DNA of 57,407 nt from Deltaproteobacteria bacterium. Its GTDB lineage: Bacteria; CG03; SLGR01; JBDRKX01. Position 1 is the stretch's first letter. The number at the start of each line of letters is the position of its first letter. The notes under the pieces are model-generated. The model made no database searches and was not told the DNA's origin. It saw only the letters and a program-made list of their open reading frames with translations. The stretch is from contig JAIVZN010000002.1 in the NCBI GenBank assembly GCA_048634875.1, positions 1 to 57,407 of the forward strand. Reading direction: 5' to 3'. This document shows, piece after piece, positions 2,412 through 50,665 of this stretch. The position numbers and the translations under genes are program-made.

Positions 2412-2416
2412 TTAAT

Positions 2417-2802: not shown

Positions 2803-2826
2803 AGTAAAAACCTCCTTCTATAATAA

Positions 2827-4107: not shown

Positions 4108-4170
4108 TCTAAGTTATAAGTTACGGATTACAAATTATAAGTTAACTTATAACCTATAATTTATAACTTA
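4108..4170. repeat. Heptad-built imperfect hairpin, TTATAAG family (copy 1)
   Basis: The sequence is taagttataagttacggattacaaattataagtt|aacttataacctataatttataactta, with a perfect 9+9 palindrome at its centre (4135-4152). It fills the spacer between the giant gene and porV. Confidence 0.7.
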
Positions 4171-9009: not shown

Positions 9010-9086
9010 AATTATCCTCCACTATTAGAACACAAGTCACAAGACTTTATTCTGAATTTTGCCCTGTCATTTTTCAATTTTTAATT

Positions 9087-9130
9087 CCTAATCTCCTAAT
9101 CTCCCAGTCTCCTAATCTCACAATCTCCCA
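9087..9130. repeat. Octamer tandem array (CCTAATCT-like, about 5.5 units)
   Basis: The array reads cctaatct cctaatct cccagtct cctaatct cacaatct ccca. On the coding (minus) strand it reads as RGGAGATT units (SD-like GGAG repeated). Confidence 0.7.
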
Positions 9131-9141
9131 TTTTACATTTT

Positions 9142-10362
9142 TTAATACTGATAGATTATACCAAGAAAATAATTTGAAACTGTATAATTATATTTATAAT
9201 TTGCTTCATATTTCATATTTGAAGAAACAGTTCGCCTGTTAAATTCTGCTGTAACAAAAAAGTTCTCCATAACCGGGTATTTATAGGATATACCAAACCC
9301 ATTATCAGTTTGGCCCACCTTCTCAGTTAAGTAATTTGCGTTTGTATCCTGGGATAAGCGGCTAATATAATGCTTAAGCTCAATTTCCCACCATAGTTTT
9401 AACCGGCTTAAGGAACTACCTGATCCAAGATAAAGTGATACACCGGGCGAAAATTCTGTTGAATAATACGAATAAAAATTTTTAATGAATTTAGCAACAT
9501 TCGCATCAAAAGAATTCTGGTTGGAATTAAAGAACCGTGTCTCGTTTCCAAGTTCAATTGCTGTTCTTTTAAATTTATACTCTAACCCCGCGATGAGTGT
9601 ATTAATAATATCTATTCTTTTATCAGATGAAAATGAACCGTCACTCCGGACAAGAGTCTGGTCTTTATAATTTCGTAAATCAAACCGGCTGGAATAATAA
9701 ACATTTATATAAGCAGTGTAATCTTTCCGTGCTTTTAAGGTCAATGCAATATTGGAATAATTTAAAACATCCTCTCCCGCGTTATTGGATATTTCTGTAT
9801 ATGTCTTGGTATCTATTGAAGTTTCATACTCTTCTTCATAGATTAAAGAAGAGTAATTTGTGAAATTAACATTGTAATAATCGCAAGATAGCGAACAGTC
9901 GTGCTCGTAAATTATCTTTGCGGCTTCTGCTCCAAATAATAATCTGTTGTAGTCAAACAGGCCTTCCCCCCATTTTTCATCATTAGTTTCATTTATGTAA
10001 GATTGCTTGTAGCCAATCCTGCCTTTTAACTTGAAATCTTTAAGTGTATGAATATATTTTATAGTTCCGCCGGATTCAACTGACTGTCGCCTGAGGGTTC
10101 CTCCGCCAGCAAGCTCATGCACATCACTTGTGGAATTGTAATCAATATTAAAAACAGGCACCAGCGCTTTTTTAGGAGAAAAATTTATAACAGGTGAAAA
10201 ATATACACTTAAATTTCCTCCAAAAGAAGAAGGATCATTATCTAAATAATACTGCCCTCCTGAGAGCAGTATATTTGCTACAGAAGTAACCTTCATTCCT
10301 GCATTAACAATTGACACACACAATCCTGTTAAAACAACTAAAATAAATAACAATTTTTTCAT
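9142..10362 (-). CDS. Hypothetical outer-membrane beta-barrel protein
   Basis: The signal peptide is MKKLLFILVVLTGLCVSIVNA. The protein is Y/N/S-rich with alternating beta-strand-like segments and an aromatic C-terminus (...GIIYQY). Confidence 0.5.
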   Translation of the reverse strand: MKKLLFILVVLTGLCVSIVNAGMKVTSVANILLSGGQYYLDNDPSSFGGNLSVYFSPVINFSPKKALVPVFNIDYNSTSDVHELAGGGTLRRQSVESGGTIKYIHTLKDFKLKGRIGYKQSYINETNDEKWGEGLFDYNRLLFGAEAAKIIYEHDCSLSCDYYNVNFTNYSSLIYEEEYETSIDTKTYTEISNNAGEDVLNYSNIALTLKARKDYTAYINVYYSSRFDLRNYKDQTLVRSDGSFSSDKRIDIINTLIAGLEYKFKRTAIELGNETRFFNSNQNSFDANVAKFIKNFYSYYSTEFSPGVSLYLGSGSSLSRLKLWWEIELKHYISRLSQDTNANYLTEKVGQTDNGFGISYKYPVMENFFVTAEFNRRTVSSNMKYEANYKYNYTVSNYFLGIIYQY

Positions 10363-10474: not shown

Positions 10475-11935
10475 TTATTCTTCATCAAATGATATTGAGA
10501 GCATTCCTGAATCCAGCAAAAGTTTTGTTGAAAACACTATATCAATATCCCTGTCTCCGAACTCAGAACTCCTGTATTTTCTTTCAAAATTAAGTTTAGA
10601 AAGATAATCCTTAAATGTGCTTCCTATAGAAGAAGAAAAATTATCTTTTAATTCTAACGAGGTCTGGATACTGCCTTCATCATCAATAAGATAATCATCA
10701 ACCTGAAGAACAGTTCCGTCAGCATAAGTATTTTTTATGCGAAGATGAAAAATATCACTTCCACCCGGACGGCTGTAAACCTCTGATATTAAATCACCTG
10801 CATCAGGATAAATTTTATTTTCATCTATATACGCCTCTGCAATATCAGAAAGGGTTTCAACTTTATCAGGGACATCCACACTCCAGAGCTTTTTTCTTGC
10901 TCTCCCGTAACCTTTTATAGAAAACTCATATTTATCAAAATAATGATGCCAGTTGAGGGCGGTATCCTGAATCATATCTCCGCCTGAAGCTTCTTCATTT
11001 ACCTGATCTTTTGTATTTGAAATAACTGAAATTAAATCAGTAAGTATCCACAGGGGCTTTTCCGCTAATTCTGAATAGAACATATCCTTAGTGGCAAGTG
11101 TAAGGTCATCAGGTAGGGTTTCATCAAAAGTAAATAAAATTTTGCCGAAATCAAACCTGTCTTCCCTGCTGTTTAATACAACATATTTAAACTGGTTATC
11201 TTCAGGTCTTACGATATATTCTTCCAGGCGGACCCTGTTACCGCCGGCGTCTATCATGGCTTTACCATTTTCATATTCAGCATTTCTGAGTTCCTCTGAC
11301 GCTCTTGCTAAAACTGCATCTCTTGAGATTTCTTCAAACATTTCCATGCGGGCTTCTCTTTTAGTTTTCTTTTCTTTTCTTTTATTTTCAATATTGAATG
11401 GCTTGGATGGCTTTTTATTCTTTTTTATTATAGAAGTCTCGCCATATAAGAGTAATACTTTTTTCCCTGTTATTATTTCTTTTGCTTCAACGATACCTTC
11501 AAAAACTTCAACTTTTGTAATTTCATCTGATACTGAAACAGAAAAATCAGTTCCTCTAACTGCGCATACTGCCTGAGGAGTTTGTATTATGTAAGACTGT
11601 TTGCCGATAAGTTTCTTTACCTTTGAACGCAGTTTGCCTTTAAAAAAATTCAGGTCTGTTTTATTTTCATTTGCAAGTGTAATTACCATTTCACTGTTCT
11701 CAGCTAAAACAGTACTGTGGCCTGAATGTAAAAAGAGAATTTTTGCATGAGACTTACTCAATGTCTTTAGCTTATCTCCAGCTTTTAATTCCATATCTGC
11801 AAATGCCGCTTGCCACTCATTTAACCTGAAATAAGAAACATCTCCGGTAACTTCAGTTAGTCTTGCTACACCTGCAAAGAGATTACCAATTATAAGTAAT
11901 ACTATAATGCATATAGCAAAAAACTTCTTATTCAT
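10475..11935 (-). CDS. FecR-domain protein with a large uncharacterised C-terminal region
   Basis: FecR-like motifs are present (TGDVSY...W..A...ELKAGDKLKT; AVCAVRGTDFSV). The start was trimmed to MNKKFF (a GGAGGC RBS precedes it, and a signal peptide follows). Confidence 0.7.
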   Translation of the reverse strand: MNKKFFAICIIVLLIIGNLFAGVARLTEVTGDVSYFRLNEWQAAFADMELKAGDKLKTLSKSHAKILFLHSGHSTVLAENSEMVITLANENKTDLNFFKGKLRSKVKKLIGKQSYIIQTPQAVCAVRGTDFSVSVSDEITKVEVFEGIVEAKEIITGKKVLLLYGETSIIKKNKKPSKPFNIENKRKEKKTKREARMEMFEEISRDAVLARASEELRNAEYENGKAMIDAGGNRVRLEEYIVRPEDNQFKYVVLNSREDRFDFGKILFTFDETLPDDLTLATKDMFYSELAEKPLWILTDLISVISNTKDQVNEEASGGDMIQDTALNWHHYFDKYEFSIKGYGRARKKLWSVDVPDKVETLSDIAEAYIDENKIYPDAGDLISEVYSRPGGSDIFHLRIKNTYADGTVLQVDDYLIDDEGSIQTSLELKDNFSSSIGSTFKDYLSKLNFERKYRSSEFGDRDIDIVFSTKLLLDSGMLSISFDEE

Positions 11936-12049
11936 AATTGCCTCCATATTTAAAAAATTATTCTCTACTCCCACATGCCTCATTCCTTTTCTTTTAAACC
12001 TTTCCAATATAATTTTAATTGCAATGAAAATTAATATCTGTGACTTTAA

Positions 12050-13990
12050 TCACAAGAGACCTGTTACTTCATAGACCTGCACAGGTTTTTCTTTTCCCTT
12101 AACTTTAAGAGCCTCAAGTTTTTTGATCTCTACAATATCTTTTACTTCTTCATAGGTGCTCTCACTTATAATTAGCTGTCCGCCTTTGGCATTTTCTTCT
12201 AACCTTGCAGCAAGATTTACATTATCACCAATTACAGTGTAATCAGCAAACTGGTCTGACCCCATATTCCCTACCACTACATCTCCTGTATTTATCCCCA
12301 TTCCAACCCTGATTTTCTCTTTTCCTTCTTTCTCCCATTTTTCCTGTAGCTCGTGAATTTTTTCCTTCATTGCCCACGCGGCTGTAGTTGCAAGCTCCGC
12401 ATGATTTTTTTGTTCAACAGGAGCTCCCCAGACTGCCATAACAGCATCACCGATAAATTTATCTAATGTGCCATGGTATTTAAAAATTATATCTATCATT
12501 TCTGTCAGGTATTCATTTAAAATACTTACTACTTCTTCAGGAGATAGCTTTTCTGACATGGAAGTAAATCCCCTTATATCTGAAAAAAATACAGTTAATC
12601 TTTTTCTTTCTCCACCAAGAGAAATCTGCTCGGGGTGAGAGAGCAGAACATCTACTACCTGCGAAGAAACATATCTTTGAAACATACCTCTTATAACCTT
12701 TTTTTCTTTTTCTTCTCTTGTAAAACTGTATATGGTAATTGCGGCATATGAAAAAATAACTGCTTCAAAAGGATAAAAAGTACTTACAACACAGTTCTTT
12801 TTAAACAAAAGAAAACTTATAAAAAAATAAACCAGCACTAAAAGAATATTTAAAAGGGCTGATGGAATTGCTTTAAACTTTATAGTTATAACTGACGCAA
12901 TTAAACTGACTATTATTATTATTAAGTAATTAATCCATACTGAAACGGGCTTTAAAAAATCCTCTTCAATAATGTTTGATGTGACTGTAGCAAGAACACC
13001 AACCATCGGAAAAAGAGGTGTAAATGGTGTTGGCCGGAGGTCAGATGTTCCTGTTGCAGTAAGACCCACAAATATAATTTTATTTTTTAAATTTTTTAAA
13101 TCTATCTGTGGTGTCCCGCCGGATAGTATGGTATCATGAGAGCCAATTACACTGACAAAAGACGCCATGTTAATATTTTCAGGTTTAAATTCACCGGAAT
13201 GGTTTATTAACATCTGGCACTTTTTATCTACCGGAATTTTTATTATTCTTTCTTTAATTTTTAATACAATATACTTTCCAGGCTTTATTATTATATCTTC
13301 CTTTTTAACACCTAAATAATCCAATGCCGCATAAAATGCCACATTCGGAACAAGATAGTCCCGGTATTGCATAATTAAAGGAATTCTGCGGGTTATACCA
13401 TCTCTGTCCGGTATAGCATTTACATAACCCGATCCGCTGACTGTTAAACTAAAACGGGGTATCGGCATTACTAAATGTTTAACATTTATAAAACAAGCAT
13501 TTTTAAAATCAGCGGCCTTACCTAAACTTATATTCTTTATTAACTGTTCATTTACAGGATGAAGTTCGTCCTTATAACCTCTGATTTTAGCAGTTGATTC
13601 AGGAATACAATAGAAAGGGAAATAAACATTACCCATAAGTGAAGATTGCCCTGCAAGAAGTTCATCGTCACCTGAGTTTTCTTCATCAGGCTCGGTAAAA
13701 AGTATATCAAGAATAATAGAGTGTGGTGAATAGGGTATCATCATGTTTATAAAGGAAGCCATATATGCTCTACGCCAGGGCCATCGTCCAAGAGCTTCAG
13801 GGGAAACACTTTCATCCCCCATTGCTACAAGAAATATTTTATCAGTAGCAGGATTTTCGCCCCTTAAAATAAAACGCCAGTTAAGAAGTTTTAATTCTAA
13901 GGAACTGCCAATATTAAAAATTGAAAGGAGAATTACAAAGAAGGAAATTCCAGCTATAAAAAAGATTAAATTTTTCCTATGGGTTGACAT
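12050..13990 (-). CDS. CHASE2-domain class III adenylate/guanylate cyclase
   Basis: The N-terminal periplasmic region is CHASE2-like and is followed by TM helices. The C-terminal region, RKRLTVFFSDIRGFTSMSEKL...LDKFIGDAVMAVWGAP...GINTGDVVVGNMG, is a class III cyclase catalytic domain. Confidence 0.85.
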   Translation of the reverse strand: MSTHRKNLIFFIAGISFFVILLSIFNIGSSLELKLLNWRFILRGENPATDKIFLVAMGDESVSPEALGRWPWRRAYMASFINMMIPYSPHSIILDILFTEPDEENSGDDELLAGQSSLMGNVYFPFYCIPESTAKIRGYKDELHPVNEQLIKNISLGKAADFKNACFINVKHLVMPIPRFSLTVSGSGYVNAIPDRDGITRRIPLIMQYRDYLVPNVAFYAALDYLGVKKEDIIIKPGKYIVLKIKERIIKIPVDKKCQMLINHSGEFKPENINMASFVSVIGSHDTILSGGTPQIDLKNLKNKIIFVGLTATGTSDLRPTPFTPLFPMVGVLATVTSNIIEEDFLKPVSVWINYLIIIIVSLIASVITIKFKAIPSALLNILLVLVYFFISFLLFKKNCVVSTFYPFEAVIFSYAAITIYSFTREEKEKKVIRGMFQRYVSSQVVDVLLSHPEQISLGGERKRLTVFFSDIRGFTSMSEKLSPEEVVSILNEYLTEMIDIIFKYHGTLDKFIGDAVMAVWGAPVEQKNHAELATTAAWAMKEKIHELQEKWEKEGKEKIRVGMGINTGDVVVGNMGSDQFADYTVIGDNVNLAARLEENAKGGQLIISESTYEEVKDIVEIKKLEALKVKGKEKPVQVYEVTGLL

Positions 13991-14026
13991 ACTAATAAAA
14001 TCATATAAAATTCTTTTTATAAATAC

Positions 14027-14074
14027 AAATCCCCCTGCCCCCCTTTATTTAAAGGGGGGAGTAAGGGGGGATTT
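14027..14074. repeat. C5/G5 compound hairpin element (copy 2)
   Basis: The sequence is aaatccccctgcccccctttatttaaaggggggagtaaggggggatttt. It sits in the divergent spacer between the cyclase and the M48 peptidase. Confidence 0.65.
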
Positions 14075-14084
14075 TCAGACGAAT

Positions 14085-15203
14085 ATGCACCCTGATATAG
14101 ACAAAGAAAAACAAAATATTGCGCGCAGATATTTCTTTACCAAGTTTTATACTGAAAAAGTATCCACATTAGTTTCACTTTTAGCGTTAATCCTGATAAT
14201 TATTTTCGGCGCATCTACTCAACTCTCATTTACCATTAAAAATATCACCTCAAATACATTGCTGTATAGAACTATCTATTTTATAATTTTTTATACTTTT
14301 TTCTTTATACTCTCGTTTCCATTTTCTTACATGAATACTTACAGAACCGAGCATATATATAAATTTTCAAACCAGAACTTTAAAGAATGGTTCATTGACC
14401 AGTTAAAAAATTACGCAGTATCTATTGTGCTTGGCTTGATAATTGTAAACATTTTTTATTTTATTGTTAATCATTCTCCGAACTTCTGGTGGTTCTGGAC
14501 AGGTTTAGCCCTGCTTATATTTTCAGTAATACTACAGTATCTTGCTCCAATCCTCCTCATACCTATCTTCTATAAATCGGAACCGGTTGAAGACAGCATA
14601 TTATGTGAAAAACTTCTTAATCTTGCTGAAAAATCAAAAATAAAAGTAATAGAAGTTTATAAAATCAAATTAAGCCAGAAAACAAAAAAGGCAAATGCTG
14701 CCCTCTCAGGCATAGGTTCTACAAGGAGGATGCTTCTTGGAGATACATTATTAGATAATTATGACCACGGAGAAATTGAAACAGTAATGGCGCATGAACT
14801 TGCCCATCATATCCACAAACATATACCAAAGTTAATTGTTTTCAGCGGAGTTATGACAATTTCAGGGGCATATATTTTACATATTATCCTGCCTTCAATC
14901 TTAAATTATCTAAACTTAGGCAAACTCCATGATATTGCTTCATTTCCGGGACTTATATTAATTACAGGAATATTTTCTTTTATTGCAGGTCCGGTTAACT
15001 CATATCTTTCAAGACTTTTAGAAACTCAGGCTGATGACACAGCAATAAAACTATCCAAGAAACCGGATAAGTTCATATCTACCATGGTAAAATTTGCCAA
15101 CAATTATCTCTCTTTTGCATATCCTCCGAAATGGATAGAATTGCTTGAATATGACCATCCTCCAATAGGCAAACGGGTTCAAAGAGCCCAGCAATTAAAT
15201 TAG
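14085..15203 (+). CDS. M48-family (Ste24/HtpX-like) zinc metallopeptidase, polytopic membrane protein
   Basis: It carries the HELAHHIHKH zincin motif and several N-terminal TM helices. The start was trimmed from the track ORF (13743) to MHPDIDKE, because the upstream part overlaps the cyclase gene on the opposite strand. Confidence 0.8.
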   Translation: MHPDIDKEKQNIARRYFFTKFYTEKVSTLVSLLALILIIIFGASTQLSFTIKNITSNTLLYRTIYFIIFYTFFFILSFPFSYMNTYRTEHIYKFSNQNFKEWFIDQLKNYAVSIVLGLIIVNIFYFIVNHSPNFWWFWTGLALLIFSVILQYLAPILLIPIFYKSEPVEDSILCEKLLNLAEKSKIKVIEVYKIKLSQKTKKANAALSGIGSTRRMLLGDTLLDNYDHGEIETVMAHELAHHIHKHIPKLIVFSGVMTISGAYILHIILPSILNYLNLGKLHDIASFPGLILITGIFSFIAGPVNSYLSRLLETQADDTAIKLSKKPDKFISTMVKFANNYLSFAYPPKWIELLEYDHPPIGKRVQRAQQLN

Positions 15204-15246
15204 GGTTCTTTCTTAAATCAGAAAGAACCTAAATTAGCTTTTTTAT
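15204..15246 (+). terminator. Candidate intrinsic terminator after the M48 gene
   Basis: A 10-bp stem GGTTCTTTCT/AGAAAGAACC has a 6-nt loop, but the T-run (ctttttta) follows only after a 9-nt gap, so it is not canonical. Confidence 0.35.
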
Positions 15247-20985: not shown

Positions 20986-21561
20986 TTAAAATTTAAATAA
21001 TGGCTTTTTTATATATTTTTTTATTTTCTTTTGACCAGACCAGACTATATTGTTATTTTCAAGGTTTATTAAATTAATATCCGCCTGATAATATACGACT
21101 TTTTTTCCGCCTTCTTCATCAACAATAGAGTTTAAAACACCTTTCAGCATAAAATCAGCTCCTGTTTCTCTGCCAAATTCTTTTTTAGATTTTATAGAAG
21201 CCCATTTCCGCATATCTTTTCTCTCATCTCTCACTTCAGCGCGCTCCCCCCGAGAAGCAACAATATCAATGTTACCCGAATTAAGTACGGCTCTCTCAAG
21301 ATCCTTGATAAAAGTCTGGACTTTTATGTGCTCTAATGTCTTATTGTGAACAGTCCCGACTATGATTACAGGTTTTCTTGCAGTTTTTTTATACCACCGG
21401 GTGGAAATACACTGCTCAATAAGCGCCTCGGCCACTAATCTTGAATCAGTATCATTCCATCTGCCTGACAGGTCTATTTGAGAATCTATACTCATTCTTG
21501 TAACTTTACCGGTTGCACAACCGGATAGAAATAAAATAAATAAAACAATTATGAGATTCAT
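20986..21561 (-). CDS. LpoB-like (COG3417) lipoprotein
   Basis: A lipobox is present (LSGC). The segments PVIIVGTVHNKTLEHIKVQTFIKDLERAVLNSG and ...YYQADINLINLENNNIVW resemble the PBP-activator LpoB family. Confidence 0.5.
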   Translation of the reverse strand: MNLIIVLFILFLSGCATGKVTRMSIDSQIDLSGRWNDTDSRLVAEALIEQCISTRWYKKTARKPVIIVGTVHNKTLEHIKVQTFIKDLERAVLNSGNIDIVASRGERAEVRDERKDMRKWASIKSKKEFGRETGADFMLKGVLNSIVDEEGGKKVVYYQADINLINLENNNIVWSGQKKIKKYIKKPLFKF

Positions 21562-21567
21562 AGTCTC

Positions 21568-22470
21568 CTAGTCTCCTAATCTCTTCTTTATTTTTCTTTC
21601 AATAATCTGCTTTTTTCTCTTTTCAATTAATTTTCTCCTTGCAGGAGATTTTTTAGTCCGCTGGGTAATGTACTGTCTTTTTATTTTTGTTATTACCTTT
21701 TTCTTATCTGCAAGATCCTTTTCCAGTATTTCATTTTCCTGTATAAGTTTATCTAATTTCTCTTTTACTGTTTTCTTTTTATCCGGGTCCCTTGTAATGC
21801 GGTACATCTTACCTAAACGAAGTATCTGTATTTTATTTCTCTTTACTGCTCTTAAATTTAAAAATAATTCTCTTTTAAACTTTAAGTGTTTCCATCTGAG
21901 CTCTCTCTTTGCAGTTATTTTTCCTATAACCTTTGCTTTCAAATCCTTGCCGGCTTTTGCCCACTGGTCTTTAGTAACTCTGATTTCCTCAGTATCATCC
22001 TCTCTCTTAAAAGCTACCTCGCCATCAAAAACCTCTACCTCCGCTGTATCCTCTTCTTCATGTATCACAGCAAATTCTGTCCCCCTGACTGCTGCAACTG
22101 CAACAGGTGTTCTTATTTCCATTTCTTCATCAGGAATTTTCTTTACCTTTGCCCTGAGCGATCCATAAATGACATCAAGCGAAGTCTTACTGCCCTTAGA
22201 ATTAATTCCAACCATGGTTTCTTCATTTATCTCCATCTTTTTATTTTCATCAAGGCTCACTTCAGCGTAGGAATTATTTTCAAGTTTTATAACAGCGCCT
22301 TCAGAAACTGCGGTATCTTCTGAAACCTGAATCCATTCAGTTGAGTCTTTCTCTCTAATCTGCACATTTCCTTCTATGTAGATAAAATCCCCTTTAGGAA
22401 TCTGCCCGTCCTCGGCTTTGGCAGAGCTTCCTAAACAAAAAATAAGTAAAACTATAATTACTTTTATCAT
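21568..22470 (-). CDS. FecR-domain protein with a Lys/Arg-rich coiled C-terminal tail
   Basis: It has a signal peptide and a FecR-like core (GNVQIREKDSTEW...EGAVIK...; VAAVRGTEFAV). Confidence 0.65.
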   Translation of the reverse strand: MIKVIIVLLIFCLGSSAKAEDGQIPKGDFIYIEGNVQIREKDSTEWIQVSEDTAVSEGAVIKLENNSYAEVSLDENKKMEINEETMVGINSKGSKTSLDVIYGSLRAKVKKIPDEEMEIRTPVAVAAVRGTEFAVIHEEEDTAEVEVFDGEVAFKREDDTEEIRVTKDQWAKAGKDLKAKVIGKITAKRELRWKHLKFKRELFLNLRAVKRNKIQILRLGKMYRITRDPDKKKTVKEKLDKLIQENEILEKDLADKKKVITKIKRQYITQRTKKSPARRKLIEKRKKQIIERKIKKRLGD

Positions 22471-24948: not shown

Positions 24949-25058
24949 TTAAGGAATGTGGGAGTAAGGATGAGAGATAAGGGAAGAAAATTTTCTTTCT
25001 TCAGCGAAGCGTTCTTCCATCTTCTATCTTCCCTCTTTCCTCTTTCCTCATTCCTCAC
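24949..25058. repeat. Heptad-built hairpin, GGAATGWG family (copy 2)
   Basis: The left arm is ttaaggaatgtgggagtaaggatgagagataagggaagaaaa. The right arm is ttcttccatcttctatcttccctctttcctctttcctcattcctcac. It sits in the recA/pgpA spacer. Confidence 0.65.
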
Positions 25059-26033: not shown

Positions 26034-26685
26034 TTATAAATTCTATCTCGTTTATCTCACCGACGCTCCCTTCTTTTATATCTATTTTCTGGTATTCATC
26101 CTGGGAACTTTTACGATAATATATATCAATACCTTTTGTGTAACCTATACGGATTTTCAGCGACTTTCCTGCTTTCCAGTATTTTGTTATTCCTGCTTGA
26201 AGTGTAGTTTCATCCACAATTTTATCGTCAATTACAACTTTCACCCATGTTGGTTCAGTTGTAATTCCTTTTACCATAATAAATTCTGGAATAGTATTCT
26301 CAACCGTAACAGTTTTCTTGTATTTTGTCTTAATTATTGATTTATAAGGCAGGTAGTAATGTAATACATATAAAACTAAAATTAAAATAATTAATACTAT
26401 GCCTGTAAAAACAGGTAAAAATTTATTTTTTCTTTTTTGCTTACTTTTACTTTCTAATGGAACAATATTTTCATCTTCAAATATCTCTATGCCATTTACA
26501 GAAATCCCTAAATAATCAGCATAAGTTTTTAAGAAGCTCTTCGCATAAAATTTCCCTGGAAAAATATCAAAATTTCCTTCTTCTAAAGCTCTAAGTTTAG
26601 TAACAGAAATTTTCATCTCCTGAGAAATTTGATTTAATGAAAGCCCCCTTTTTTTTCTTTCCTTTTTTAATTCAATATAATTCAC
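26017..26685 (-). CDS. rodZ: RodZ-like cytoskeleton protein (HTH + TM + C-terminal domain)
   Basis: The N-terminal HTH (RKKRGLSLNQISQEMKISVTKLRALEEGNFD) is followed by ...FPGKFYAKSFLKTYADYLG and then a single TM helix. The start is GTG. Confidence 0.7.
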   Translation of the reverse strand: MNYIELKKERKKRGLSLNQISQEMKISVTKLRALEEGNFDIFPGKFYAKSFLKTYADYLGISVNGIEIFEDENIVPLESKSKQKRKNKFLPVFTGIVLIILILVLYVLHYYLPYKSIIKTKYKKTVTVENTIPEFIMVKGITTEPTWVKVVIDDKIVDETTLQAGITKYWKAGKSLKIRIGYTKGIDIYYRKSSQDEYQKIDIKEGSVGEINEIEFINEFSK

Positions 26686-26702
26686 TTGTAAATAAATCCT
26701 AT

Positions 26703-26890
26703 ATTGAGACCTAAATGATGTTTTTTTTGCGACTTGTGACTTTTTAGTGAAACTATACCGTTAAAAAACTAAAACTTGTTTGAGCCCAACTCTTCATGAA
26801 GAGCTGGGCGAGTTTTTTAGTTTTAGGTATAGTCTCATGTGCCAAAGGCAAAAAGTCTCCGGAGCAAAAAAATATATTTTTAGGGCTCAA
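26703..26890 (-). repeat. Long-hairpin intergenic element X, copy 1 (about 188 nt; the module extends to 26686-26938)
   Basis: It is an imperfect palindrome centred on CTCTTCATGAAGAG (26790-26803), with about 94 nt per arm and outer ends attgagacctaaa...tttagggctcaat. It is near-identical to the reverse complement of 49635-49823. The strand given is the direction of flanking transcription. Confidence 0.85.
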
Positions 26891-26932
26891 TTATTTTTAT
26901 CTCCTTTTGTTAGCTGAAAGCCCATGTCCGTT

Positions 26933-27595
26933 TCACTCAAAATCAAGGATATTCACATCATTGCCTGCCTTAAAACTAAAACAATCATCATTTAAAACAG
27001 GATTTAAGATATAATTTGTAAATATAGTTACTGATTTAAAATTAGGCGCATATACTACTGTCTCCTCTGGAAGATATGTATCAGTATTAAAAAATATAAT
27101 CATATTATCAAAATTATATTCAGTAGAAAGAATGGGGACGGTTCTGATACTTTTCCCATTCTTTCTATTTTCATTTACACTGAGTTTGAAATTTTTTTTC
27201 AAAAGTCCGAATGAGTCTGATGATAGAATCACTGAAGTCGTTACGCCAAGCATATCAATAAAATTATTACTTTTTTGCTTTGTTGCCTGTTTAATCTCAG
27301 GTATGTATGTAAATAAGTATCCATCTGAAAAATAAATTTCCTGTATATGAGGTTTTTGATATATAATTTTAAGATTATCCGGTCTTTTAAAAAAAACCTC
27401 GGCTTTGATAGTTTGCGTACTATCAGCAATAAAAGTATTTTGCTGGAAAGAAAATGAAATTGTTCTCACTTTGCTCATTCTCTCAGTTATCTGCTTAGAT
27501 AACTCCTCTACACTATTACACAGCGCAACCTGCACAATGCAGGATATCAACATAAAATATAAAATATGAATCTTTATCTGTTTAACATTCCTCAT
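26933..27595 (-). CDS. LolA-like outer-membrane lipoprotein carrier
   Basis: It has a signal peptide and the LolA-like pattern (F.Q......G....KRPDNLKIIY..P..QEIYFSDGYLFTY.P). The conserved ftsK-lolA adjacency is present. Confidence 0.6.
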   Translation of the reverse strand: MRNVKQIKIHILYFMLISCIVQVALCNSVEELSKQITERMSKVRTISFSFQQNTFIADSTQTIKAEVFFKRPDNLKIIYQKPHIQEIYFSDGYLFTYIPEIKQATKQKSNNFIDMLGVTTSVILSSDSFGLLKKNFKLSVNENRKNGKSIRTVPILSTEYNFDNMIIFFNTDTYLPEETVVYAPNFKSVTIFTNYILNPVLNDDCFSFKAGNDVNILDFE

Positions 27596-30321: not shown

Positions 30322-30341
30322 CCGTAAATAAACTCCTTAAT

Positions 30342-30448
30342 ATGAGTCCTAAATGATGCATTTTTTGCGAGCTTTAAGACTTTTTAAGTGAAACTATGCC
30401 GTAAAAAAACTAAAACTTGTTTGAGCGTTAGCGAGTTTTTTAGTTTCA
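30342..30448 (-). repeat. Long-hairpin element X, copy 3 (one arm truncated)
   Basis: The sequence is gagtcctaaatgatgcattttttgcgagctttaagactttttaagtgaaactatgccgtaaaaaaactaaaacttgtttgagcgttagcgagttttttagtttca. The partner arm is cut off at the pnp stop codon. Confidence 0.75.
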
Positions 30449-30452
30449 TCTC

Positions 30453-32531
30453 CTAATCTCCCTCTAACGCTTTAGACCTGCTCAACTTTATTTTCCCCCT
30501 GTCATCTATTCCCAAACATTTTACTTTAACTTTGTCTCCAACATTTAAAATGTCAGTTACCTTATTTACTCTATAATCAGCCAGTTCAGATATATGCACA
30601 AGCCCTTCCTTACCGGGAAGTATTTCTACAAAAGCGCCAAAATCTAAGACATTTTTAACCGTTCCTTCATATACTTTTCCGGCTTCTGCATCAGTTGTGC
30701 ATAATGTTACCATTTCTACAGCTTTATCTAAATTCTCCTTTGAACAGGCACTTATAGACACTACCCCTGTATCATCTACTTCTATTACAGCGTCTGTAGT
30801 TTCCTGTATGGATTTAATGTTTTTACCACCAGGACCTATCAATAAACCTATTTTTTTAGGATCTATTGTTATGTTTACCATCTGGGGAGCATATTGCGAT
30901 AAACTTTCCCTGGGTTCTGATATCACTTTTTCAATTTCTCTGAGAGTTCCAAGCCCGGCATTTTTTGCCTGATGGAGTGCTCTTGTCAGTACCTCTTTAC
31001 TTATACCACTGACTTTTATATCCATCTGAATAGCAGTTATACCATTTTTAGTACCCGCAACTTTAAAATCCATATCACCTGCATAGTCCTCATCACCCAA
31101 CATATCAGTTAATACTACATCTCCAATTATACCCATTCCAACACCTACGACAATATCTTTCATAGGCACTCCTGCATCCATCAGTGCAATAGAACCTGCG
31201 CAAATTGTCGCCATTGATGATGAGCCGTTTGATTCTAAAATATCCGATACTAATCTTATGGTATATGGAAATTTTTCCTTATCAGGAAGAAATGGAGCAA
31301 TAGCTTTTTCTGCAAGTAAACCATGCCCTATTTCTCTTCTACCAACACCTCTTTCAGGTTTTACCTCTCCAACTGAATACGGCGGAAAATTATAATGGAG
31401 CATAAAATTTTTCTTGTATTCACCTGAGAGCGCATCCATTATCTGCTGGTCCCTGTTATTACCAAGAGTAACAACACAAAGGGATTGTGTTTCTCCCTTT
31501 GTAAACAGGCCCGAGCCATGAGTTCGCGGAAGAAGCCCGTTAGAACAGCTTATTTGCCTTAATTCATCAGGCTTTCTCCCATCAACTCTTATTCCTTCTT
31601 CTATCACTAACTTCCTCAACAACTCTTTCTCTAATTTATTTATAATCAGATTTATCTGTGCGGTTTTTTCTTCATCCTCTTCAACTTCAATAAAATTACC
31701 TAAAACCTCTTCTTTTATATTACCTAACTTTTTTGAGCGTTCAGCTTTTGATAATGCGCCTTTAAAGACCTCGTACATCTTTGAAGCAGCAAAATCAGCT
31801 ATCTTGTTCTTTAATTCGTCGTCAACTTCAGGCGGAGTAAAAGTAATTTTCTCTTTGCCTGCCTTCTTGACAATATTTTGCTGAAACTTCACAATTTTTT
31901 CAATTACAGCTTTTGCTATATCTAATGCCCCTAAAATAGTATCTTCAGAAACTTCAGATGATTTACCCTCTAACATAACTATTCCGGATTCTTTACCTGC
32001 AATAACTAAATCAATTTCACTCTTTTCTAACTCCTGAAAAGTCGGATTAATGATAAACTTGTCTTCAATTTTGCCAATTCTAACTGCGCCAACAGGGCCA
32101 TCAAATGGAACTGAAGATAAACTAACTGCGCAGCTTCCGCCAATCATTGCAGGTATGTCAGTATCATTTTCACCATCTATGGATAAAACAGTTACCATTA
32201 CCTGCACCTCGTCCTGATAACCTTCAGGAAAAAGAGGACGAATTGGACGGTCTATTAACCTTGATGTTATTATTTCTTTTTCCTGGGGCCTGCCCTCTCT
32301 CTTAAAAAATCCTCCGGGTATCTTCCCTGCCGCATAAGTTCTTTCCCTGTAATCAACCATAAGAGGGAAAAACCCGGCATTTCTTTTTGATTCAGATGCG
32401 CAGCATGTAGCAAGCACAACAGTCCCCCCATAAGTTACTTTCACTGCTCCAGCAGCCTGACGCGCAAGTTCGCCTGTCTCAATTATTAATTCTCTGCCAT
32501 TTACTTCTATTTTTTCAACAATTTTTTCCAT
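30453..32531 (-). CDS. pnp: Polyribonucleotide nucleotidyltransferase (PNPase)
   Basis: The architecture is two RNase PH domains plus KH plus S1, with canonical PNPase blocks throughout. Confidence 0.97.
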   Translation of the reverse strand: MEKIVEKIEVNGRELIIETGELARQAAGAVKVTYGGTVVLATCCASESKRNAGFFPLMVDYRERTYAAGKIPGGFFKREGRPQEKEIITSRLIDRPIRPLFPEGYQDEVQVMVTVLSIDGENDTDIPAMIGGSCAVSLSSVPFDGPVGAVRIGKIEDKFIINPTFQELEKSEIDLVIAGKESGIVMLEGKSSEVSEDTILGALDIAKAVIEKIVKFQQNIVKKAGKEKITFTPPEVDDELKNKIADFAASKMYEVFKGALSKAERSKKLGNIKEEVLGNFIEVEEDEEKTAQINLIINKLEKELLRKLVIEEGIRVDGRKPDELRQISCSNGLLPRTHGSGLFTKGETQSLCVVTLGNNRDQQIMDALSGEYKKNFMLHYNFPPYSVGEVKPERGVGRREIGHGLLAEKAIAPFLPDKEKFPYTIRLVSDILESNGSSSMATICAGSIALMDAGVPMKDIVVGVGMGIIGDVVLTDMLGDEDYAGDMDFKVAGTKNGITAIQMDIKVSGISKEVLTRALHQAKNAGLGTLREIEKVISEPRESLSQYAPQMVNITIDPKKIGLLIGPGGKNIKSIQETTDAVIEVDDTGVVSISACSKENLDKAVEMVTLCTTDAEAGKVYEGTVKNVLDFGAFVEILPGKEGLVHISELADYRVNKVTDILNVGDKVKVKCLGIDDRGKIKLSRSKALEGD

Positions 32532-32822: not shown

Positions 32823-32868
32823 TTTTTCCTCCTTTTTTATTTTTTAATTTAGTTTTTTTCTTAACATG

Positions 32869-33047
32869 AGTCCTGGAAATGTATTTTGAGTGACTTCAGT
32901 ACTTTTAGCAAATGATATGGCATAGAAAAAACTCAAACTGTCTGAGGCTGACTTATAGAGGCAGCCGAGTTTTTGAGTTTCAGGCATATCATTGCGTGCC
33001 GTAAGGCAAAAGTACTGCGGAACGAACAAATTCATTTTCTGGACTCT
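32869..33047 (-). repeat. Long-hairpin element X, copy 4 (divergent variant)
   Basis: The sequence is gagtcctggaaatg...agtacttttagcaaatgatatggcatagaaaaaactcaaac...ggctg-acttatagag-gcagcc...gtttttgagttt...ggcatatcattgc...aaaagtact...cattttctggactc. The helix order matches copies 1/2, with both strands of several helices changed. Confidence 0.7.
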
Positions 33048-36226: not shown

Positions 36227-37245
36227 TCTAATTCCTTCTCCACAGCATCCAAGACTTTTCTTTTAACTTCTTTAAATTCACCTTTTATCAAACATCCTTC
36301 TGCATTGTGGTGTCCCCCTCCGCCAAAATGATTTGCTATCTTATTAACATTTACACCACCTTTAGAACGAAACGAAACTTTTATACCATCTAAGCCGGGT
36401 ATCTTTCTAAACAATATCCCAACTTCCACTCCCTTTATATTACGCGCAAAATTTATAACACCCTCTAAATCTTCAATAGAGGCACCCGTAGTTTGAAACA
36501 TTTCAGGGGTCACTGTTATATATCCAACTCTTTTAGAATTAGTCAGGGTTAAAGATTCTATTGCTTTTGATACAAGCCTGAGACCCTCTATTTCACTGTT
36601 TCTGTATATAAGGGTAGATACTTTTTGAGGAGAAATAAATTTATCAATCAGCCCGGCAGCAATTAAGTGAGATTGAGGGGTTGTATTATCTTCCTGAAAT
36701 TTATCTGTGTCAGTTACAATTCCAATATATATACAGAGAGCAAGGTCATAATCAAACTCAATATTCATCTGAGACGCTATATTAAAAATTAACTCGCAGA
36801 CAGAAGAACTCTTCGGTTTAACATAATTAATATCGCCAAACTCATGATTTAACTGGTGATGGTCAATGTTTATAATTGTCCGAGCCGATGTCAACAGACC
36901 CGATAGCCCTTCAATTCTCTTTTTGTCAGAACAATCAAGTACAAACCCGATATCTTTAGTAGGACAGGCATCTTGCCTGTCAGTAGTATCACCTCCAAAT
37001 GCAGTTTTAATCTTATCTATTCCTTTCAGGAAACTATAAACTCTCGGCAAAGCACTCGGAGAAATAACTTCTACATCTAAACCGAGTTTCCTTAAGATAT
37101 GATACATTGCAAGCGCCCCTCCAATTGCATCGCCATCAGGCCGCGGATGCATTGTAACAAAAGCGCTCTTTGAATTTTCTATCACATTTATAATTTTTGA
37201 GATAATATTTCTATCTTCAACCGGTATATCTAAATTAAGTTTCAT
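36217..37245 (-). CDS. nrnA: DHH/DHHA1 phosphoesterase, NrnA-like oligoribonuclease / pAp phosphatase
   Basis: It carries the HPRPDGDAIGG, DHH (INIDHHQ) and GGGGHHNA motifs. Confidence 0.8.
   Translation of the reverse strand: MKLNLDIPVEDRNIISKIINVIENSKSAFVTMHPRPDGDAIGGALAMYHILRKLGLDVEVISPSALPRVYSFLKGIDKIKTAFGGDTTDRQDACPTKDIGFVLDCSDKKRIEGLSGLLTSARTIINIDHHQLNHEFGDINYVKPKSSSVCELIFNIASQMNIEFDYDLALCIYIGIVTDTDKFQEDNTTPQSHLIAAGLIDKFISPQKVSTLIYRNSEIEGLRLVSKAIESLTLTNSKRVGYITVTPEMFQTTGASIEDLEGVINFARNIKGVEVGILFRKIPGLDGIKVSFRSKGGVNVNKIANHFGGGGHHNAEGCLIKGEFKEVKRKVLDAVEKELDRL
36958..36986. repeat. 19-bp GC-rich palindrome with 5-bp direct flanks, in-frame inside nrnA
   Basis: The sequence is agtag|gacaggcatcttgcctgtc|agtag. 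The same 19-mer is intergenic at 47176-47194. The palindrome plus one flank is 24 nt and encodes DRQDACPT. Confidence 0.75.
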
Positions 37246-37248
37246 CCT

Positions 37249-37629
37249 TCAACTTTCTATCTTCCATCTTCTATCTTCCTCGCTGTCCCTTATTTTTTTA
37301 AATATCATTTCTAAATGTTGCGCTTTTTCAGGAGTATCATCATATATCATTTGTATCTTTGGTATATACCTTAACACAGCTTCTTCAGCAAGCCTGCATC
37401 TCAGGAACTTATGCATCTGTATAATTGTGTTTTTTTGTTTTTGAATATCCTTCTTTCCACCTATCAGCGAGAAATACACCTTAGCGATACTCAGGTCTGT
37501 AGTTACTTCAACATCAGTAACAGTAACTATACCCATTTTAGGATCAGAAATTTCCTGAGATAATATTTTTCCTAAAATTTGTTTTATTAAACTTGATACC
37601 TTTTGCGTTCGCCTACTTTTTTTCAACAA
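37249..37629 (-). CDS. rbfA: Ribosome-binding factor A
   Basis: RbfA family blocks are present (R..KV...I...L...I...DP....VTVT.VEVT.DL..AKVYFS). The start is TTG, behind AAGGGGG. Confidence 0.9.
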   Translation of the reverse strand: MLKKSRRTQKVSSLIKQILGKILSQEISDPKMGIVTVTDVEVTTDLSIAKVYFSLIGGKKDIQKQKNTIIQMHKFLRCRLAEEAVLRYIPKIQMIYDDTPEKAQHLEMIFKKIRDSEEDRRWKIES

Positions 37630-46000: not shown

Positions 46001-47152
46001 ATGAAATTCCCATCCGGCTTTTGCATAACCAGTATAAAAGGAGAAAAAAATGATTTTGGCTTGATATTTGCCCCGCTTGGTATGAAAACAGCAGGTATGT
46101 TTACAACAAATTCCTGCCCTGCACATCCAGTTAAATTTTCAAGAGATACAATAAAAAACCCCGTGCATAAAGCAATACTCGTTAATAAGGGGAGTGCAAA
46201 TTCTGCTACAGGCAATGAAGGAAAAAAGCATTTAAAAAATTTAGTAGCAGAAGTTTGCAACGGCCTTGTAATTGGCAAGGAGGAGGTACTTGTTGCATCA
46301 ACAGGTGTAATAGGAAAACAACTGCAATATACAGATTCAGAAATAAACAGGTTAATTGAAAAAAAAGAAAGAGTGGAACCTGATAATTTTGCCCAGGCAA
46401 TTATGACTACGGACACCTGCAAAAAGGTTGTAACAGAAAGTTTTGAAATAGATGGAAAAGAAGTAATAATAACCGGGATTGCAAAAGGTTCCGGAATGAT
46501 TGCGCCTGATTTAGCAACTATGCTTGCATTTATCCTTACAGATGTAAGAATGGAAAAAGAAGCGCTTCAAGCTGCGCTTAAAAGGGCTGCTGATATCAGT
46601 TTTAACTGTTTGAACATTGACGGCGAGACAAGTACAAATGACAGCGTATTCCTTGCAGCGTCAGGAACTGCTCGGAACCGTTCTTTTGGTCAACAAGGAG
46701 AACATTTTGACATATTTTATAAGAGCCTGAAAAAGGTTTGTATTTTGCTTGTAGAGAAACTTACCGGAGATGGCGAAGGAGCAACAAAATTTATAAAAAT
46801 TAACATACGGGGCGCAGTCAATGAAGATAGCGCAAAGAAAGCTGCAAATGCAATAGCAGTTTCACCTCTATGCAAGATTGCTTTTTACGGCGCATCTCCA
46901 AACTGGGGAAGAATAATCTCAGCGCTTGGCGCTGCCCGGATAAAGTTTAGAGTGGAAAATTTCAGCCTGTATATTAACAGCATACCATGGGTAAAAAAAG
47001 GTATACCTCAAAATACAGAACCTGTAAAAAAGGCTTTAGAAAACAGGCAGTATGAAATTAACATACATTTAAATTCAGGAAATAAAAAAGCCTCTTTATA
47101 TACCTGTGATTTCAGCCCGGAGTATGTAAAAATTAACGCGCATTATTCGTAG
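46001..47152 (+). CDS. argJ: Bifunctional ornithine acetyltransferase / N-acetylglutamate synthase
   Basis: The autoprocessing site is PDLATMLAFILTD, with ArgJ blocks throughout. Confidence 0.93.
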   Translation: MKFPSGFCITSIKGEKNDFGLIFAPLGMKTAGMFTTNSCPAHPVKFSRDTIKNPVHKAILVNKGSANSATGNEGKKHLKNLVAEVCNGLVIGKEEVLVASTGVIGKQLQYTDSEINRLIEKKERVEPDNFAQAIMTTDTCKKVVTESFEIDGKEVIITGIAKGSGMIAPDLATMLAFILTDVRMEKEALQAALKRAADISFNCLNIDGETSTNDSVFLAASGTARNRSFGQQGEHFDIFYKSLKKVCILLVEKLTGDGEGATKFIKINIRGAVNEDSAKKAANAIAVSPLCKIAFYGASPNWGRIISALGAARIKFRVENFSLYINSIPWVKKGIPQNTEPVKKALENRQYEINIHLNSGNKKASLYTCDFSPEYVKINAHYS

Positions 47153-47194
47153 TGAAACGGACATGGGCTTTGTGTGACAGGCATCTTGCCTGTC
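47153..47194 (+). repeat. Post-stop motif TGAAACGGACATGGGCTT plus the 19-bp palindrome GACAGGCATCTTGCCTGTC
   Basis: The TGAAACGGACATGRGCTT motif recurs at 49593-49612 and, on the minus strand, at 26913-26938. It is always in the sense orientation of the upstream gene; two copies lie at the stop codon and the 49593 copy lies about 60 nt downstream of it. The palindrome (47176-94) recurs inside nrnA. Confidence 0.7.
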
Positions 47195-47198
47195 AGGA

Positions 47199-47275
47199 TT
47201 ATAAGTTATAAGTGATAAGTTATAGGTGAAATTATAAAAAATAACTCATAATTTATAACTCGTAACTCATAATTT
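47199..47275. repeat. Heptad-built hairpin, TTATAAG family (copy 2)
   Basis: The sequence is attataagttataagtgataagttataggtgaa...ataactcataatttataactcgtaactcataa. Confidence 0.7.
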
Positions 47276-47295
47276 TTTATAGTAGCTATTTACAG

Positions 47296-49533: not shown

Positions 49534-49634
49534 TGGCCGAGCTTGCTCGGCGTGGTAGGAGATTAAGAGATTGGGGTGTAAGTGATGAAGAATGAAACGG
49601 ACATGAGCTTCTCTCGCAAAAGCGGATGAAAATA

Positions 49635-49823
49635 ATTGAGCCCTAAAAATGTATTTTGTTGCTCCAGAGACTTTTTGCCTTTGGCACATGAAACTATGCC
49701 TAAAACTAAAAAACTCCCCAGCCCCTGCACGCAGGAGCTGGGTCAAACAAGTTTTAGTTTTTTAACGCCATAGTTTCATTAAAAAATCACAAGTCGCAAA
49801 AAATGCATCATTTAGGTCTCAAT
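49635..49823 (+). repeat. Long-hairpin element X, copy 2 (inverted relative to copy 1; the module extends to 49593-49905)
   Basis: The sequence is attgagccctaaaaatgtattttgttgctccagagactttttgcctttggcacatgaaactatgcctaaaactaaaaaactcccc...gggtcaaacaagttttagttttttaacgccatagtttcattaaaaaatcacaagtcgcaaaaaatgcatcatttaggtctcaat. Confidence 0.85.
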
Positions 49824-49909
49824 TCGACGCCTACGCAAAATTGTAGAGCCTTGATTTTGTAGGGGCTTGATTTATCAAGCCCGATAAAGGATTTATTTAC
49901 GAGTGTAAG

Positions 49910-50545: not shown

Positions 50546-50662
50546 GTTATGAGTTACGAGTTATGAATTATAATAAAAGTTATAAGTTACAAATTATAAA
50601 TTATAAGTTAAATACTCATAACTCTTCACCTATAACTTATCACTCATCACTTATAACTTATT
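50543..50662. repeat. Heptad-built hairpin, TTATAAG family (copy 3, inverted relative to copy 2)
   Basis: The sequence is taagttatgagttacgagttatgaattataataaaagttataagttacaaattataaattataagttaaatactcataactcttcacctataacttatcactcatcacttataactta. Its reverse complement shares AAGTTATAAGTGA(TGAGTGA)TAAGTTATAGGTGAA and ATAACTCGTAACTCATAA with copy 2. Confidence 0.7.
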
Positions 50663-50665
50663 GAT

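Follow-up and report, generated by a model that had tools for sequence, protein, structure and literature searches.

ERIC/IRU, YPAL, Correia/NEMIS and the Rickettsia palindromic elements (RPE) are mobile stem-loop repeats of 100-200 bp that are co-transcribed and affect mRNA in an orientation-dependent manner (reviewed in PMC2229807). ERIC/IRU (127 bp) and YPAL of Yersinia (168 bp) are small, non-coding, imperfect palindromes that form one long stem-loop, are co-transcribed within operons, exert orientation-dependent effects and reveal their mobility through empty versus filled sites; the Correia/NEMIS family of Neisseria (107-155 bp) consists of abundant, gene-adjacent palindromes that give RNase III-sensitive hairpin transcripts and can alter the expression of neighbours, and RPE insertions are tolerated where essential genes survive (PMC2229807). 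REP/BIME (RAYT) and IS200/IS605-derived elements represent another kind, namely mosaics of exchangeable palindromes, nested or in tandem, with no outer terminal inverted repeats (TIRs) and with a fixed short sequence adjacent to one end. Such mosaics with a fixed end-adjacent sequence are the product of HUH single-strand transposases. Here we analyze a repeat that resembles these families in several of these traits, in a stretch of 57,407 nt (hereinafter the window; GenBank assembly GCA_048634875.1, contig JAIVZN010000002.1) that PNPase places in Elusimicrobiota. The initial annotation, made from the sequence alone, had noticed four copies of a ~190-nt hairpin in intergenic spacers and considered an ERIC/MITE-like element (MITE, miniature inverted-repeat transposable element), an operon-internal RNA processing or stability element, or a structured non-coding RNA (ncRNA) family. 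We conclude that the copies are probably small, mosaic, non-autonomous insertion elements of the MITE/ERIC/BIME-like kind, which form a lineage-specific family in one Elusimicrobiota species.

All four hairpins were recovered where they had been located, at the lolA/rodZ (c1), glyA/upp (c2), pnp/accB (c3) and GGDEF gene/rpsO (c4) junctions (Table 1), and all are related to each other; the identities guessed for the flanking genes (LolA/RodZ, SHMT/UPRTase, PNPase/AccB-like and GGDEF/S15) hold, as does the description of c3 as a truncated copy that lost one arm. A strict core pattern (AAACTMAAAAACTC-N(5-35)-TCARACA-(N)-GTTTKAGTTTT) matches exactly the c1-c4 sites in the window, with a chance expectation of 0, and a search with nhmmer --max (all filters off) found no fifth hairpin copy in the 57 kb. 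The four copies, 135-313 nt in size, all lie inside 23 kb, the other 34 kb of the window being free of them. One related unit, at the argJ/sua5 (yrdC) junction, has the termini of the full units around a different interior that consists of the mini-palindrome GACAGGCATCTTGCCTGTC and a heptamer-repeat palindrome. The open reading frames (ORFs) within the copies are short and show no conservation from copy to copy.

The principal evidence of mobility comes from comparison with relatives. The copies are present unchanged in GCA_048634415.1 and GCA_030601005.1, two more assemblies of this lineage (98.6-99.8% identical), so they are not an assembly artefact. Searches with the genes at the ends of the window lengthened it by only about 1.4 kb. 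In distant relatives (five contigs, 68-80% protein identity), the gene orders GGDEF-rpsO-pnp-accB-x-ftsK-lolA-rodZ and argJ-sua5-x-glyA-upp are kept, and no copy of the element was found in about 61 kb; the junctions are tight, with overlapping lolA/rodZ and pnp/accB genes and a GGDEF/rpsO spacer of about 30 nt. Between these extremes lies a sister lineage with 94-98% DNA identity to the window, of which about 58 kb was recovered by searching with Upp and then following clusters (NODE_653 and NODE_408 of ENA ERZ25746724, together with Logan contigs and others from ENA) and which has only two decayed copies and one variant.

Site by site, the two lineages differ as follows. At glyA/upp, c2 and its modules are absent from three independent sister assemblies (contigs L104, L105 and L106): the sister reads ...GAAGAATGAA-AA-ATGAATAAT and the window ...GAAGAATGAA(ACGGACATGAGC ... 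TTTATTTACGAGTGTAAG)ATGAATAAAG. At lolA/rodZ, the sister has only GAGTGAAACGGACATGAATTAT (GAGTGAAACGGACATGAATTATATTG; GTGAA-ACGGAC-ATGAA), which is what the window would read if GGCTTT...ACAAGTG were deleted, the breakpoints sharing a TG microhomology. At GGDEF/rpsO, c4 is absent and an unrelated A-rich palindrome takes its place. The pnp/accB junction of the sister retains the tail of the 5' module, the outermost helix alone (TGAGCCCTAAAAATG/CATCATTTAGGACTCA) and the 3' module, the interior being gone; together with the truncated c3, this arrangement reflects one ancestral insertion that was followed by two different internal deletions in the two lineages. At rbfA/nrnA, the sister site is filled by an internally deleted copy with both modules and with ATGAA(AC) on each side, and the window site is empty (GAAGG-ATGAAAC-TTAAT), its single ATGAAAC being the nrnA start; a 3'-module remnant directly left of the left repeat in the sister looks as if two units had been inserted in tandem. 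The argJ/sua5 junction of the sister (contig L104) contains a long hairpin with a c2-type apex. At both rbfA/nrnA and glyA/upp, the whole module-hairpin-module unit is present or absent together.

Insertion polymorphism in close relatives, which is expected of MITEs, is observed in both lineages, c1, c2 and c4 being absent from the sister and the rbfA/nrnA copy from the window. Filled and empty sites at a few percent divergence, combined with the empty junctions of the distant relatives, indicate young insertions and rule out conserved RNA genes at these positions, and the comparison shows that copies are gained, lost and eroded by internal deletion over 2-6% sequence divergence. Of the options originally considered, the ERIC/MITE-like element therefore gains support from the filled and empty sites at 94-98% identity, from the empty sites of the distant syntenic relatives and from the decay of copies by differing deletions; the structured ncRNA or processing element gains none, because the search of related genomes found the orthologous junctions empty and the sites polymorphic at 94-98% nucleotide identity.

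The full unit exceeds the hairpin and has the form 5'-ACGGACATG...GATRAAAATAAT-(hairpin)-ATTAAGGAGTTTATTTACRR-3'. Its 5' module starts with ACGGACATG, continues with a variable 10-25 nt and ends with the A-rich linker CAAAAGGRGATRAAAATAAT; the ~190-nt fold-back hairpin has the borders AATT-GAGNCC ... GGNCTC-AATT; and the 3' module, (A)AGGA(G)TTTATTTACRR, which had been overlooked, closes the unit with ATTAAGGAGTTTATTTAC plus two purines. The 3' module adjoins the hairpin in c1 and c3 and in c2 is separated from it by an extra 63 nt (49825-49887) with a small hairpin of its own, GGGCTTGATTTATCAAGCCC. Each of the three exact matches to TTTATTTACRRGTG is at a copy, and RTGAAACGGACATG is present at every full unit. 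In c3, the 5' arm is gone, and between the remaining 5'-module tail TTAGGAGATGAAA, which provides the pnp stop codon TAG, and the 3' module AAGGAGTTTATTTACGG are the core and the 3' arm; the first base of c4 is the G of the stop codon TAG of the GGDEF gene. The outer termini, ACGGACATG... and ...TTTATTTACRR, are asymmetric and bear no inverted-repeat relation to each other, whereas the hairpin alone does have inverted-repeat ends (TGAGNCCTAAA/TTTAGGNCTCA). The outward extension of homology that had been described for c1 and c2 (TGAAACGGACATG/TGAAACGGACATGRGCTT) is real, and a third occurrence of TGAAACGGACATG, at 47152-47170, heads the argJ/sua5 unit; the motif is not a loose extension of the hairpin, as had been thought, and consists of the flanking repeat (R)TGAA joined to the 5' end of the element, ACGGACATG.

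A 5-nt direct repeat, RTGAA, brackets the unit at four sites (Table 1). The variable first base is the same on both sides at three of the four (G/G, A/A and A/A, against G/T), which favours a true 5-nt duplication. The next gene downstream (rodZ, upp, nrnA, sua5 or accB) always has its start codon in the right-hand repeat; in RodZ, the HTH domain begins at residue 6. The 3' module of c1 and c3 carries AGGA or AAGGAG as a Shine-Dalgarno sequence, 11 nt ahead of the start codon; for the corresponding genes of the relatives, the ribosome-binding site is located within the upstream gene. The upstream repeat leaves the old start site at the head of a mini-ORF of 4-17 codons, and in both the window lineage and the sister lineage the C-terminus and stop codon of PNPase are element-derived. 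These features are compatible with a scenario in which the unit would insert at, or be tolerated only at, RTGAA start codons of tight operon junctions. In c1 and c3, the 3' module supplies the regenerated start codon with a new Shine-Dalgarno sequence; the upstream repeat keeps the old start site as a mini-ORF and, at c1, also the lolA stop codon. An insertion in the reverse orientation would terminate the operon and have no ribosome-binding site, such that the observed orientation would be the sole survivor. The tip of the hairpin is an exchangeable mini-palindrome.

Each of the full copies folds as one long imperfect hairpin, as had been proposed, with energies of -65.9 (c1), -63.0 (c2) and -58.6 (c4) kcal/mol; the respective z-scores are -8.6, -7.0 and -5.7, and 0 of 200 shuffles fold as well. 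In the alignment of c1, c2 and c4, standard pairs occupy 91.7% of the cells, and the compensatory changes claimed on inspection are confirmed, 19 of the 69 pairs being altered on both sides with pairing kept, compared to 7.1 +/- 2.1 in column shuffles (0/500 reach 19) and 0-4 in slid-partner controls. Most of these changes are full Watson-Crick swaps, which can stem from selection on either strand or from palindrome copying and repair. The folding energies are -64.4, -61.6 and -52.0 kcal/mol for the sense strand versus -63.9, -70.1 and -60.7 kcal/mol for the antisense strand, G-U pairs are few on both strands, and the test for a sense RNA by G-U strand asymmetry found no asymmetry. Because the fold of the antisense strand equals or surpasses that of the sense strand and G-U pairs are scarce, the covariation appears to maintain the hairpin as a DNA palindrome, with no sign of RNA-specific selection. 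The difference between the apical stems of c1 and c2 does not represent compensatory evolution in situ; the two apices are swapped mini-palindromes, given that the c2 apex recurs in the sister argJ/sua5 hairpin, the arms of which are unrelated, with one C-G to T-A double change as the sole difference. A small-ORF interpretation was rejected, a 45-amino-acid ORF being open in c1 and c2 and closed in c4, and the apex region not being conserved at the protein level.

The shared orientation of all four copies relative to the flanking genes is confirmed and extends to 6/6 independent sites (c1, c2, c3, c4, argJ/sua5 and the sister rbfA/nrnA; two-sided binomial p about 0.03). No promoter-like site or IHF-type motif was found inside hairpins c1-c4; in the absence of such promoters, the operons must read through the copies. 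One promoter-like match (9/12) lies on the sense strand in the argJ/sua5 unit, at 47174-47202. On the antisense strand, the GC-rich apical stem is followed by GAGTTTTTT; besides the apex of c2 (Table 1), this is read from the sequence in c1, c3 and c4, where GAGTTTTT(T) comes after the apex, and in c1 and c2 the T-run ATTATTTT follows the whole hairpin. The antisense apex has the GC-rich stem-loop and immediate T-run of a predicted intrinsic terminator, and a reversed insertion in an operon would therefore be polar. With the Shine-Dalgarno sequence and start codon on one strand and the terminator-like signal on the other, the orientation lock seems to be better explained by this asymmetric design than by a role of the sense RNA. 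The element may have an RNA-level side effect on operon transcripts.

Hairpins with a similar core occur in other phyla. A loose pattern (AAACTMAAAAACTCN{5,35}TCARACA) was searched against a genome collection; its matches are mostly due to chance, in AT-rich genomes, and the host genome is not among the matches listed. Nevertheless, there are a Flavobacterium hairpin repeat family (~245 nt, at least 20 copies among the matches listed), a Gracilibacteria family (~85 nt, at least 6 copies among the matches listed) and one locus in a gammaproteobacterial metagenome-assembled genome (MAG). In common with the window hairpin they have a core of ~40-45 nt, CCTAAAACTMAAAAACTC-(variable self-complementary apex)-CTCAAACAGTT.GAGTTT.TT.ACGG, of which 21 common positions are imposed by the search pattern; ~12 more are identical in the Flavobacterium and window elements. 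By crude ORF calls, 21 of the 24 copies among the matches listed have a gene that converges on their terminator-like strand. The copies in other phyla are dispersed over varied contexts, no recurrent neighbour proteins were found around the Flavobacterium copies, and none of these repeats has a match in Rfam. We treat the cross-phylum core as a lead, not a finding; common descent, horizontal spread or convergence on a terminator design could each be behind it.

Several observations weigh against the reading of the copies as mobile, non-autonomous insertion elements, or against the details of the scenario outlined above. No transposase or other mobilising gene could be linked to the element in about 58 kb of each lineage; the classical DDE-transposase mechanism of MITEs does not fit the full unit, whose outer termini lack an inverted-repeat relation; and the insertion sites number only six. 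Copy c4 has no modules and is not at a start codon, and the extra 63-nt segment of c2 shifts the Shine-Dalgarno sequence of its 3' module too far from the start of upp, 18 nt away from the ATG. In predictions for the folded transcript, access to the Shine-Dalgarno sequence and start codon comes out low or is uninformative, and both antisense termination and sense read-through are predictions only. At lolA/rodZ and glyA/upp, gain versus loss is not certain, the 'empty' sites of the sister having the form TGAA-N(3-7)-TGAA, which may represent the ancestral state, a footprint or what a deletion left behind. Furthermore, RTGAA may combine a fixed target with an end encoded by the element, as HUH transposases produce, and not be a true target-site duplication; the asymmetric ends and the fixed RTGAA 5' of the left end would be expected of an HUH-type derivative, the right pentamer resembles a duplication, and no Y1 transposase was seen.

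The alternatives place the function or the mobility elsewhere. We consider it unlikely that the hairpin alone is the mobile entity, that is, a classical TIR MITE with the inverted-repeat ends given above, an AT or AATT duplication and a DDE transposase, the modules being carrier or flanking sequence and RTGAA incidental. Such a MITE would accommodate c4, which is a hairpin without modules, as well as the clear terminal inverted repeats and the AATT flanks in c2 and both sister copies, and the same modules around different interiors at argJ/sua5 would fit hairpins nested in a carrier. However, AATT is itself palindromic and may just lengthen the stem; c4 has the flanks ATA and ATG, with no clean duplication; and at rbfA/nrnA and glyA/upp it is the whole unit that comes and goes. 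The module-bearing copies may also share one carrier-plus-hairpin ancestor, which would leave c4 as the only independent insertion. Still less probable, in our assessment, is that the copies are domesticated one-way terminators or insulators that are retained to stop antisense or convergent transcription while the operon reads through. The GC-rich stem with its T-run on the antisense strand agrees with such a function, as does the convergence of genes on the terminator-like side in the core-sharing Flavobacterium and Gracilibacteria families (21/24 among the matches listed), but the ORF calls behind that count are crude and terminator activity is only predicted; moreover, no gene in the window reads into a copy from the antisense side, and the copies are dispensable, the sister doing without c1, c2 and c4.

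The properties that would ordinarily point to an evolved cis-acting RNA (for intercistronic processing, stability or translational coupling) or to a structured ncRNA family, in either case under selection on the sense strand, are all present here: very stable folds, compensatory changes, an orientation consistent with transcription, and a position within operons that makes co-transcription necessary; ERIC and Correia elements, for comparison, affect mRNA fate by orientation (PMC2229807). Nevertheless, this explanation appears highly improbable. The copies are absent at the orthologous junctions of all relatives examined and polymorphic at 94-98% identity, have no Rfam match, fold equally well or better as antisense with few G-U pairs on either strand, withstand the deletion of an entire arm, as in c3, or of the interior, as at the sister pnp/accB junction, and have an exchangeable palindrome for an apex. 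Strong folding and compensatory change, the usual signals of RNA genes, are thus found here in elements that close relatives lack.

Within the insertion-element interpretation, a more specific proposition, which we regard as doubtful, is that the unit represents a previously undescribed type of mobile element that targets start codons (RTGAA), is independent of TIRs, is compatible with operons and has a hairpin core belonging to a cross-phylum class of one-way terminators. The operon-compatible design of such an element may consist in consigning the old ribosome-binding site to the mini-ORF, regenerating the start codon in the repeat and providing a new Shine-Dalgarno sequence.

Among the described systems, the closest are the bacterial MITE-like palindromes (ERIC/IRU, YPAL, Correia/NEMIS and RPE), with the REP/BIME mosaics also close, and we assign the element to no named family. 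It differs from the known palindromes in its asymmetric termini, a start codon within the flanking repeat, a donated ribosome-binding site and an exchangeable apex. ERIC has short TIRs, a TA duplication and both orientations, in contrast to the asymmetric, non-inverted ends, RTGAA and Shine-Dalgarno module seen here; it also comes from another phylum, with no sequence relationship seen. Correia elements likewise differ in their ends and target: their TIRs are 24-26 bp long, and they have a TA duplication and an IHF site. REP sequences are far shorter than the hairpin, no RAYT or TnpA gene was seen in roughly 115 kb of the two lineages, and IS200/IS605 elements make no duplication, whereas here the pentanucleotide flanks the unit on both sides. 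The element-derived C-terminus and stop codon of PNPase resemble the fusions produced by RPE (PMC2229807), but RPE insert in frame inside coding sequences, whereas the elements described here lie at gene boundaries and replace translation signals.

The statement that no described family could be recognised is upheld by the database searches. At the gathering score, Rfam (release 15) had 0 matches to the window; relaxed thresholds gave chance-level hits only (E of at least 0.96 at c1). No match to the element was found in plasmid and phage collections, to the strict core pattern in JGI metagenomes, to the core pattern in viral contigs, or with a concatenated six-frame peptide query built from the copies, and no description of the element emerged from the literature, whether searched by topic or by sequence string. 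The 5'-module pattern matched one JGI contig, L112 (Ga0265292_1025232), at 1758-1804, with ATGAAACGGACATG...GATGAAAATAAT and without the hairpin. An IS701-like transposase ORF on the minus strand (230-1456) starts ~300 nt from this match. Some specific identities were rejected. An integron attC site was discarded because the core CTCAAAC ... GTTTKAG does not fit the boxes RYYYAAC ... GTTRRRY and the neighbours are syntenic housekeeping genes, and an IHF site in TCAAACAAGTT was discarded by eye as a misfit to WATCAANNNNTTR. The sister lineage has, in contig L104 at 11653-15232 (window equivalent 51683-51724), a 3.6-kb insertion, absent from the window, with several small ORFs and a gene for a Y2 transposase of the IS91 family (Zn_Tnp_IS91 + Y2_Tnp); a role of this transposase as the mobiliser is unsupported, its termini not being in common with those of the element.

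Small palindromic repeats are usually dismissed as junk unless they fold well and covary, in which case they are treated as candidate RNA genes. The present case suggests a simple structural cause for an orientation lock, with the translation signals and a terminator on opposite strands. If the association with start codons and the donation of Shine-Dalgarno sequences hold genome-wide, this would be an unusually neat selfish insertion that is harmless in tightly coupled operons, and a natural source of rewired intercistronic regions, with new starts, new ribosome-binding sites and altered C-termini, as at PNPase, RodZ and AccB here. In the annotation of MAGs, spurious ORFs and altered gene starts at element junctions should be watched for.

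Table 1. Coordinates of the element copies and other features. Positions are those of the window unless a sister contig or another locus (L numbers) is given; flanking pentamers are listed as left/right.
Feature	Position	Strand	Details
c1, full unit, lolA/rodZ junction	26686..26931	-	pentamers GTGAA/GTGAA
c1 5' module	26893-26931	-	ACGGACATGGGCTTTCAGCTAACAAAAGGAGATAAAAAT
c1 hairpin	about 26702-26892	-	flanked by AATT
c1 3' module	26686-26701	-	TAGGATTTATTTACAA
c1 upstream direct repeat	26932..26936	-	GTGAA; holds lolA stop codon TGA (26935-26933)
c1 downstream direct repeat	26681..26685	-	GTGAA; holds rodZ start codon GTG (26685-26683)
c2, full unit, glyA/upp junction	49597..49909	+	pentamers ATGAA/ATGAA
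c2 5' module	49597-49633	+	
c2 hairpin	about 49634-49824	+	
c2 3' module	49888-49909	+	
c2 flanks	49592-49596 and 49910-49914	+	ATGAA; the latter is the upp start codon
c2 apex, antisense	49717..49742	-	11-bp stem, 8 GC pairs, 4-nt loop, then GAGTTTTTTA; flagged by consensus scan
c3, pnp/accB junction	30322..30456	-	truncated; pentamers lost/GTGAA
c3 right flank	30321-30317	-	GTGAA; holds accB start codon
c4, GGDEF gene/rpsO junction	32868..33046	-	divergent; hairpin only, without terminal modules
Related unit, argJ/sua5 (yrdC) junction	47157..47295	+	termini ACGGACATGGGCTTT ... AGCTATTTACAG; pentamers GTGAA/TTGAA
argJ/sua5 unit flanks	47152-47156 and 47296-47300	+	GTGAA and TTGAA (sua5 start codon)
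Sister lineage, rbfA/nrnA unit			pentamers ATGAA/ATGAA
Tandem Shine-Dalgarno-like repeats	9078-9135, 21558-21583, 25014-25058, 37247-37291; sister L110 1-115		
Core-sharing loci, Flavobacterium/Bacteroidota	L015, L016, L020, L025, L030, L039, L043, L049, L054, L056, L059, L060, L062, L067, L071, L078, L082, L087, L088		
Core-sharing loci, Gracilibacteria	L011, L013, L024, L052, L053, L058		
Further core-sharing locus	L019 6280-6351		

The window and the sister contigs contain other repeats. The 19-nt mini-palindrome of the argJ/sua5 element, GACAGGCATCTTGCCTGTC, is found at 47176-47194 and again at 36963-36981, within the nrnA/DHH coding sequence; the sister lineage shares the nrnA copy, save for one mismatch. 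Tandem repeats of 7-8 nt that resemble Shine-Dalgarno sequences (GGAGATTA, GGAAGAT and similar, on the gene strand) lie directly upstream of start codons (Table 1), and the array at rbfA/nrnA is much longer in the sister lineage. A second palindrome family, built of TTATAAG-type heptamers, occurs at 50546-50665 (upp/glycosyltransferase spacer), 47199-47277 and 4110-4170; the 120-nt palindrome after upp also seems to be a recent insertion, because the sister has no copy and its two genes overlap. The ~28-nt unit at the glyA stop codon (GCAAGCTCGGCCACTACAGTAAAATATC, reverse strand; window 49529-49545) is tandemly repeated in GCA_048634415.1 (L101 7399-7439) and not in the window. Two REP-like palindromic inserts are specific to the sister: one, GTCATTGCGAG...CTCGCAATGAC, in the glyA/upp spacer (L104, about 9880-9950), and one of the GGGGGA/TCCCCC type within the 5' end of lolA (L110, about 9715-9810). 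The left end of the window (1-3100) has a tyrosine recombinase gene at 521-1771 and genes for a RES/Xre toxin-antitoxin pair at 2073-2695 and is probably an integrated island; in the sister, from about 17260 of contig L113, PorV is followed by DUF2281, purU and rnf genes instead of the recombinase and toxin-antitoxin genes.

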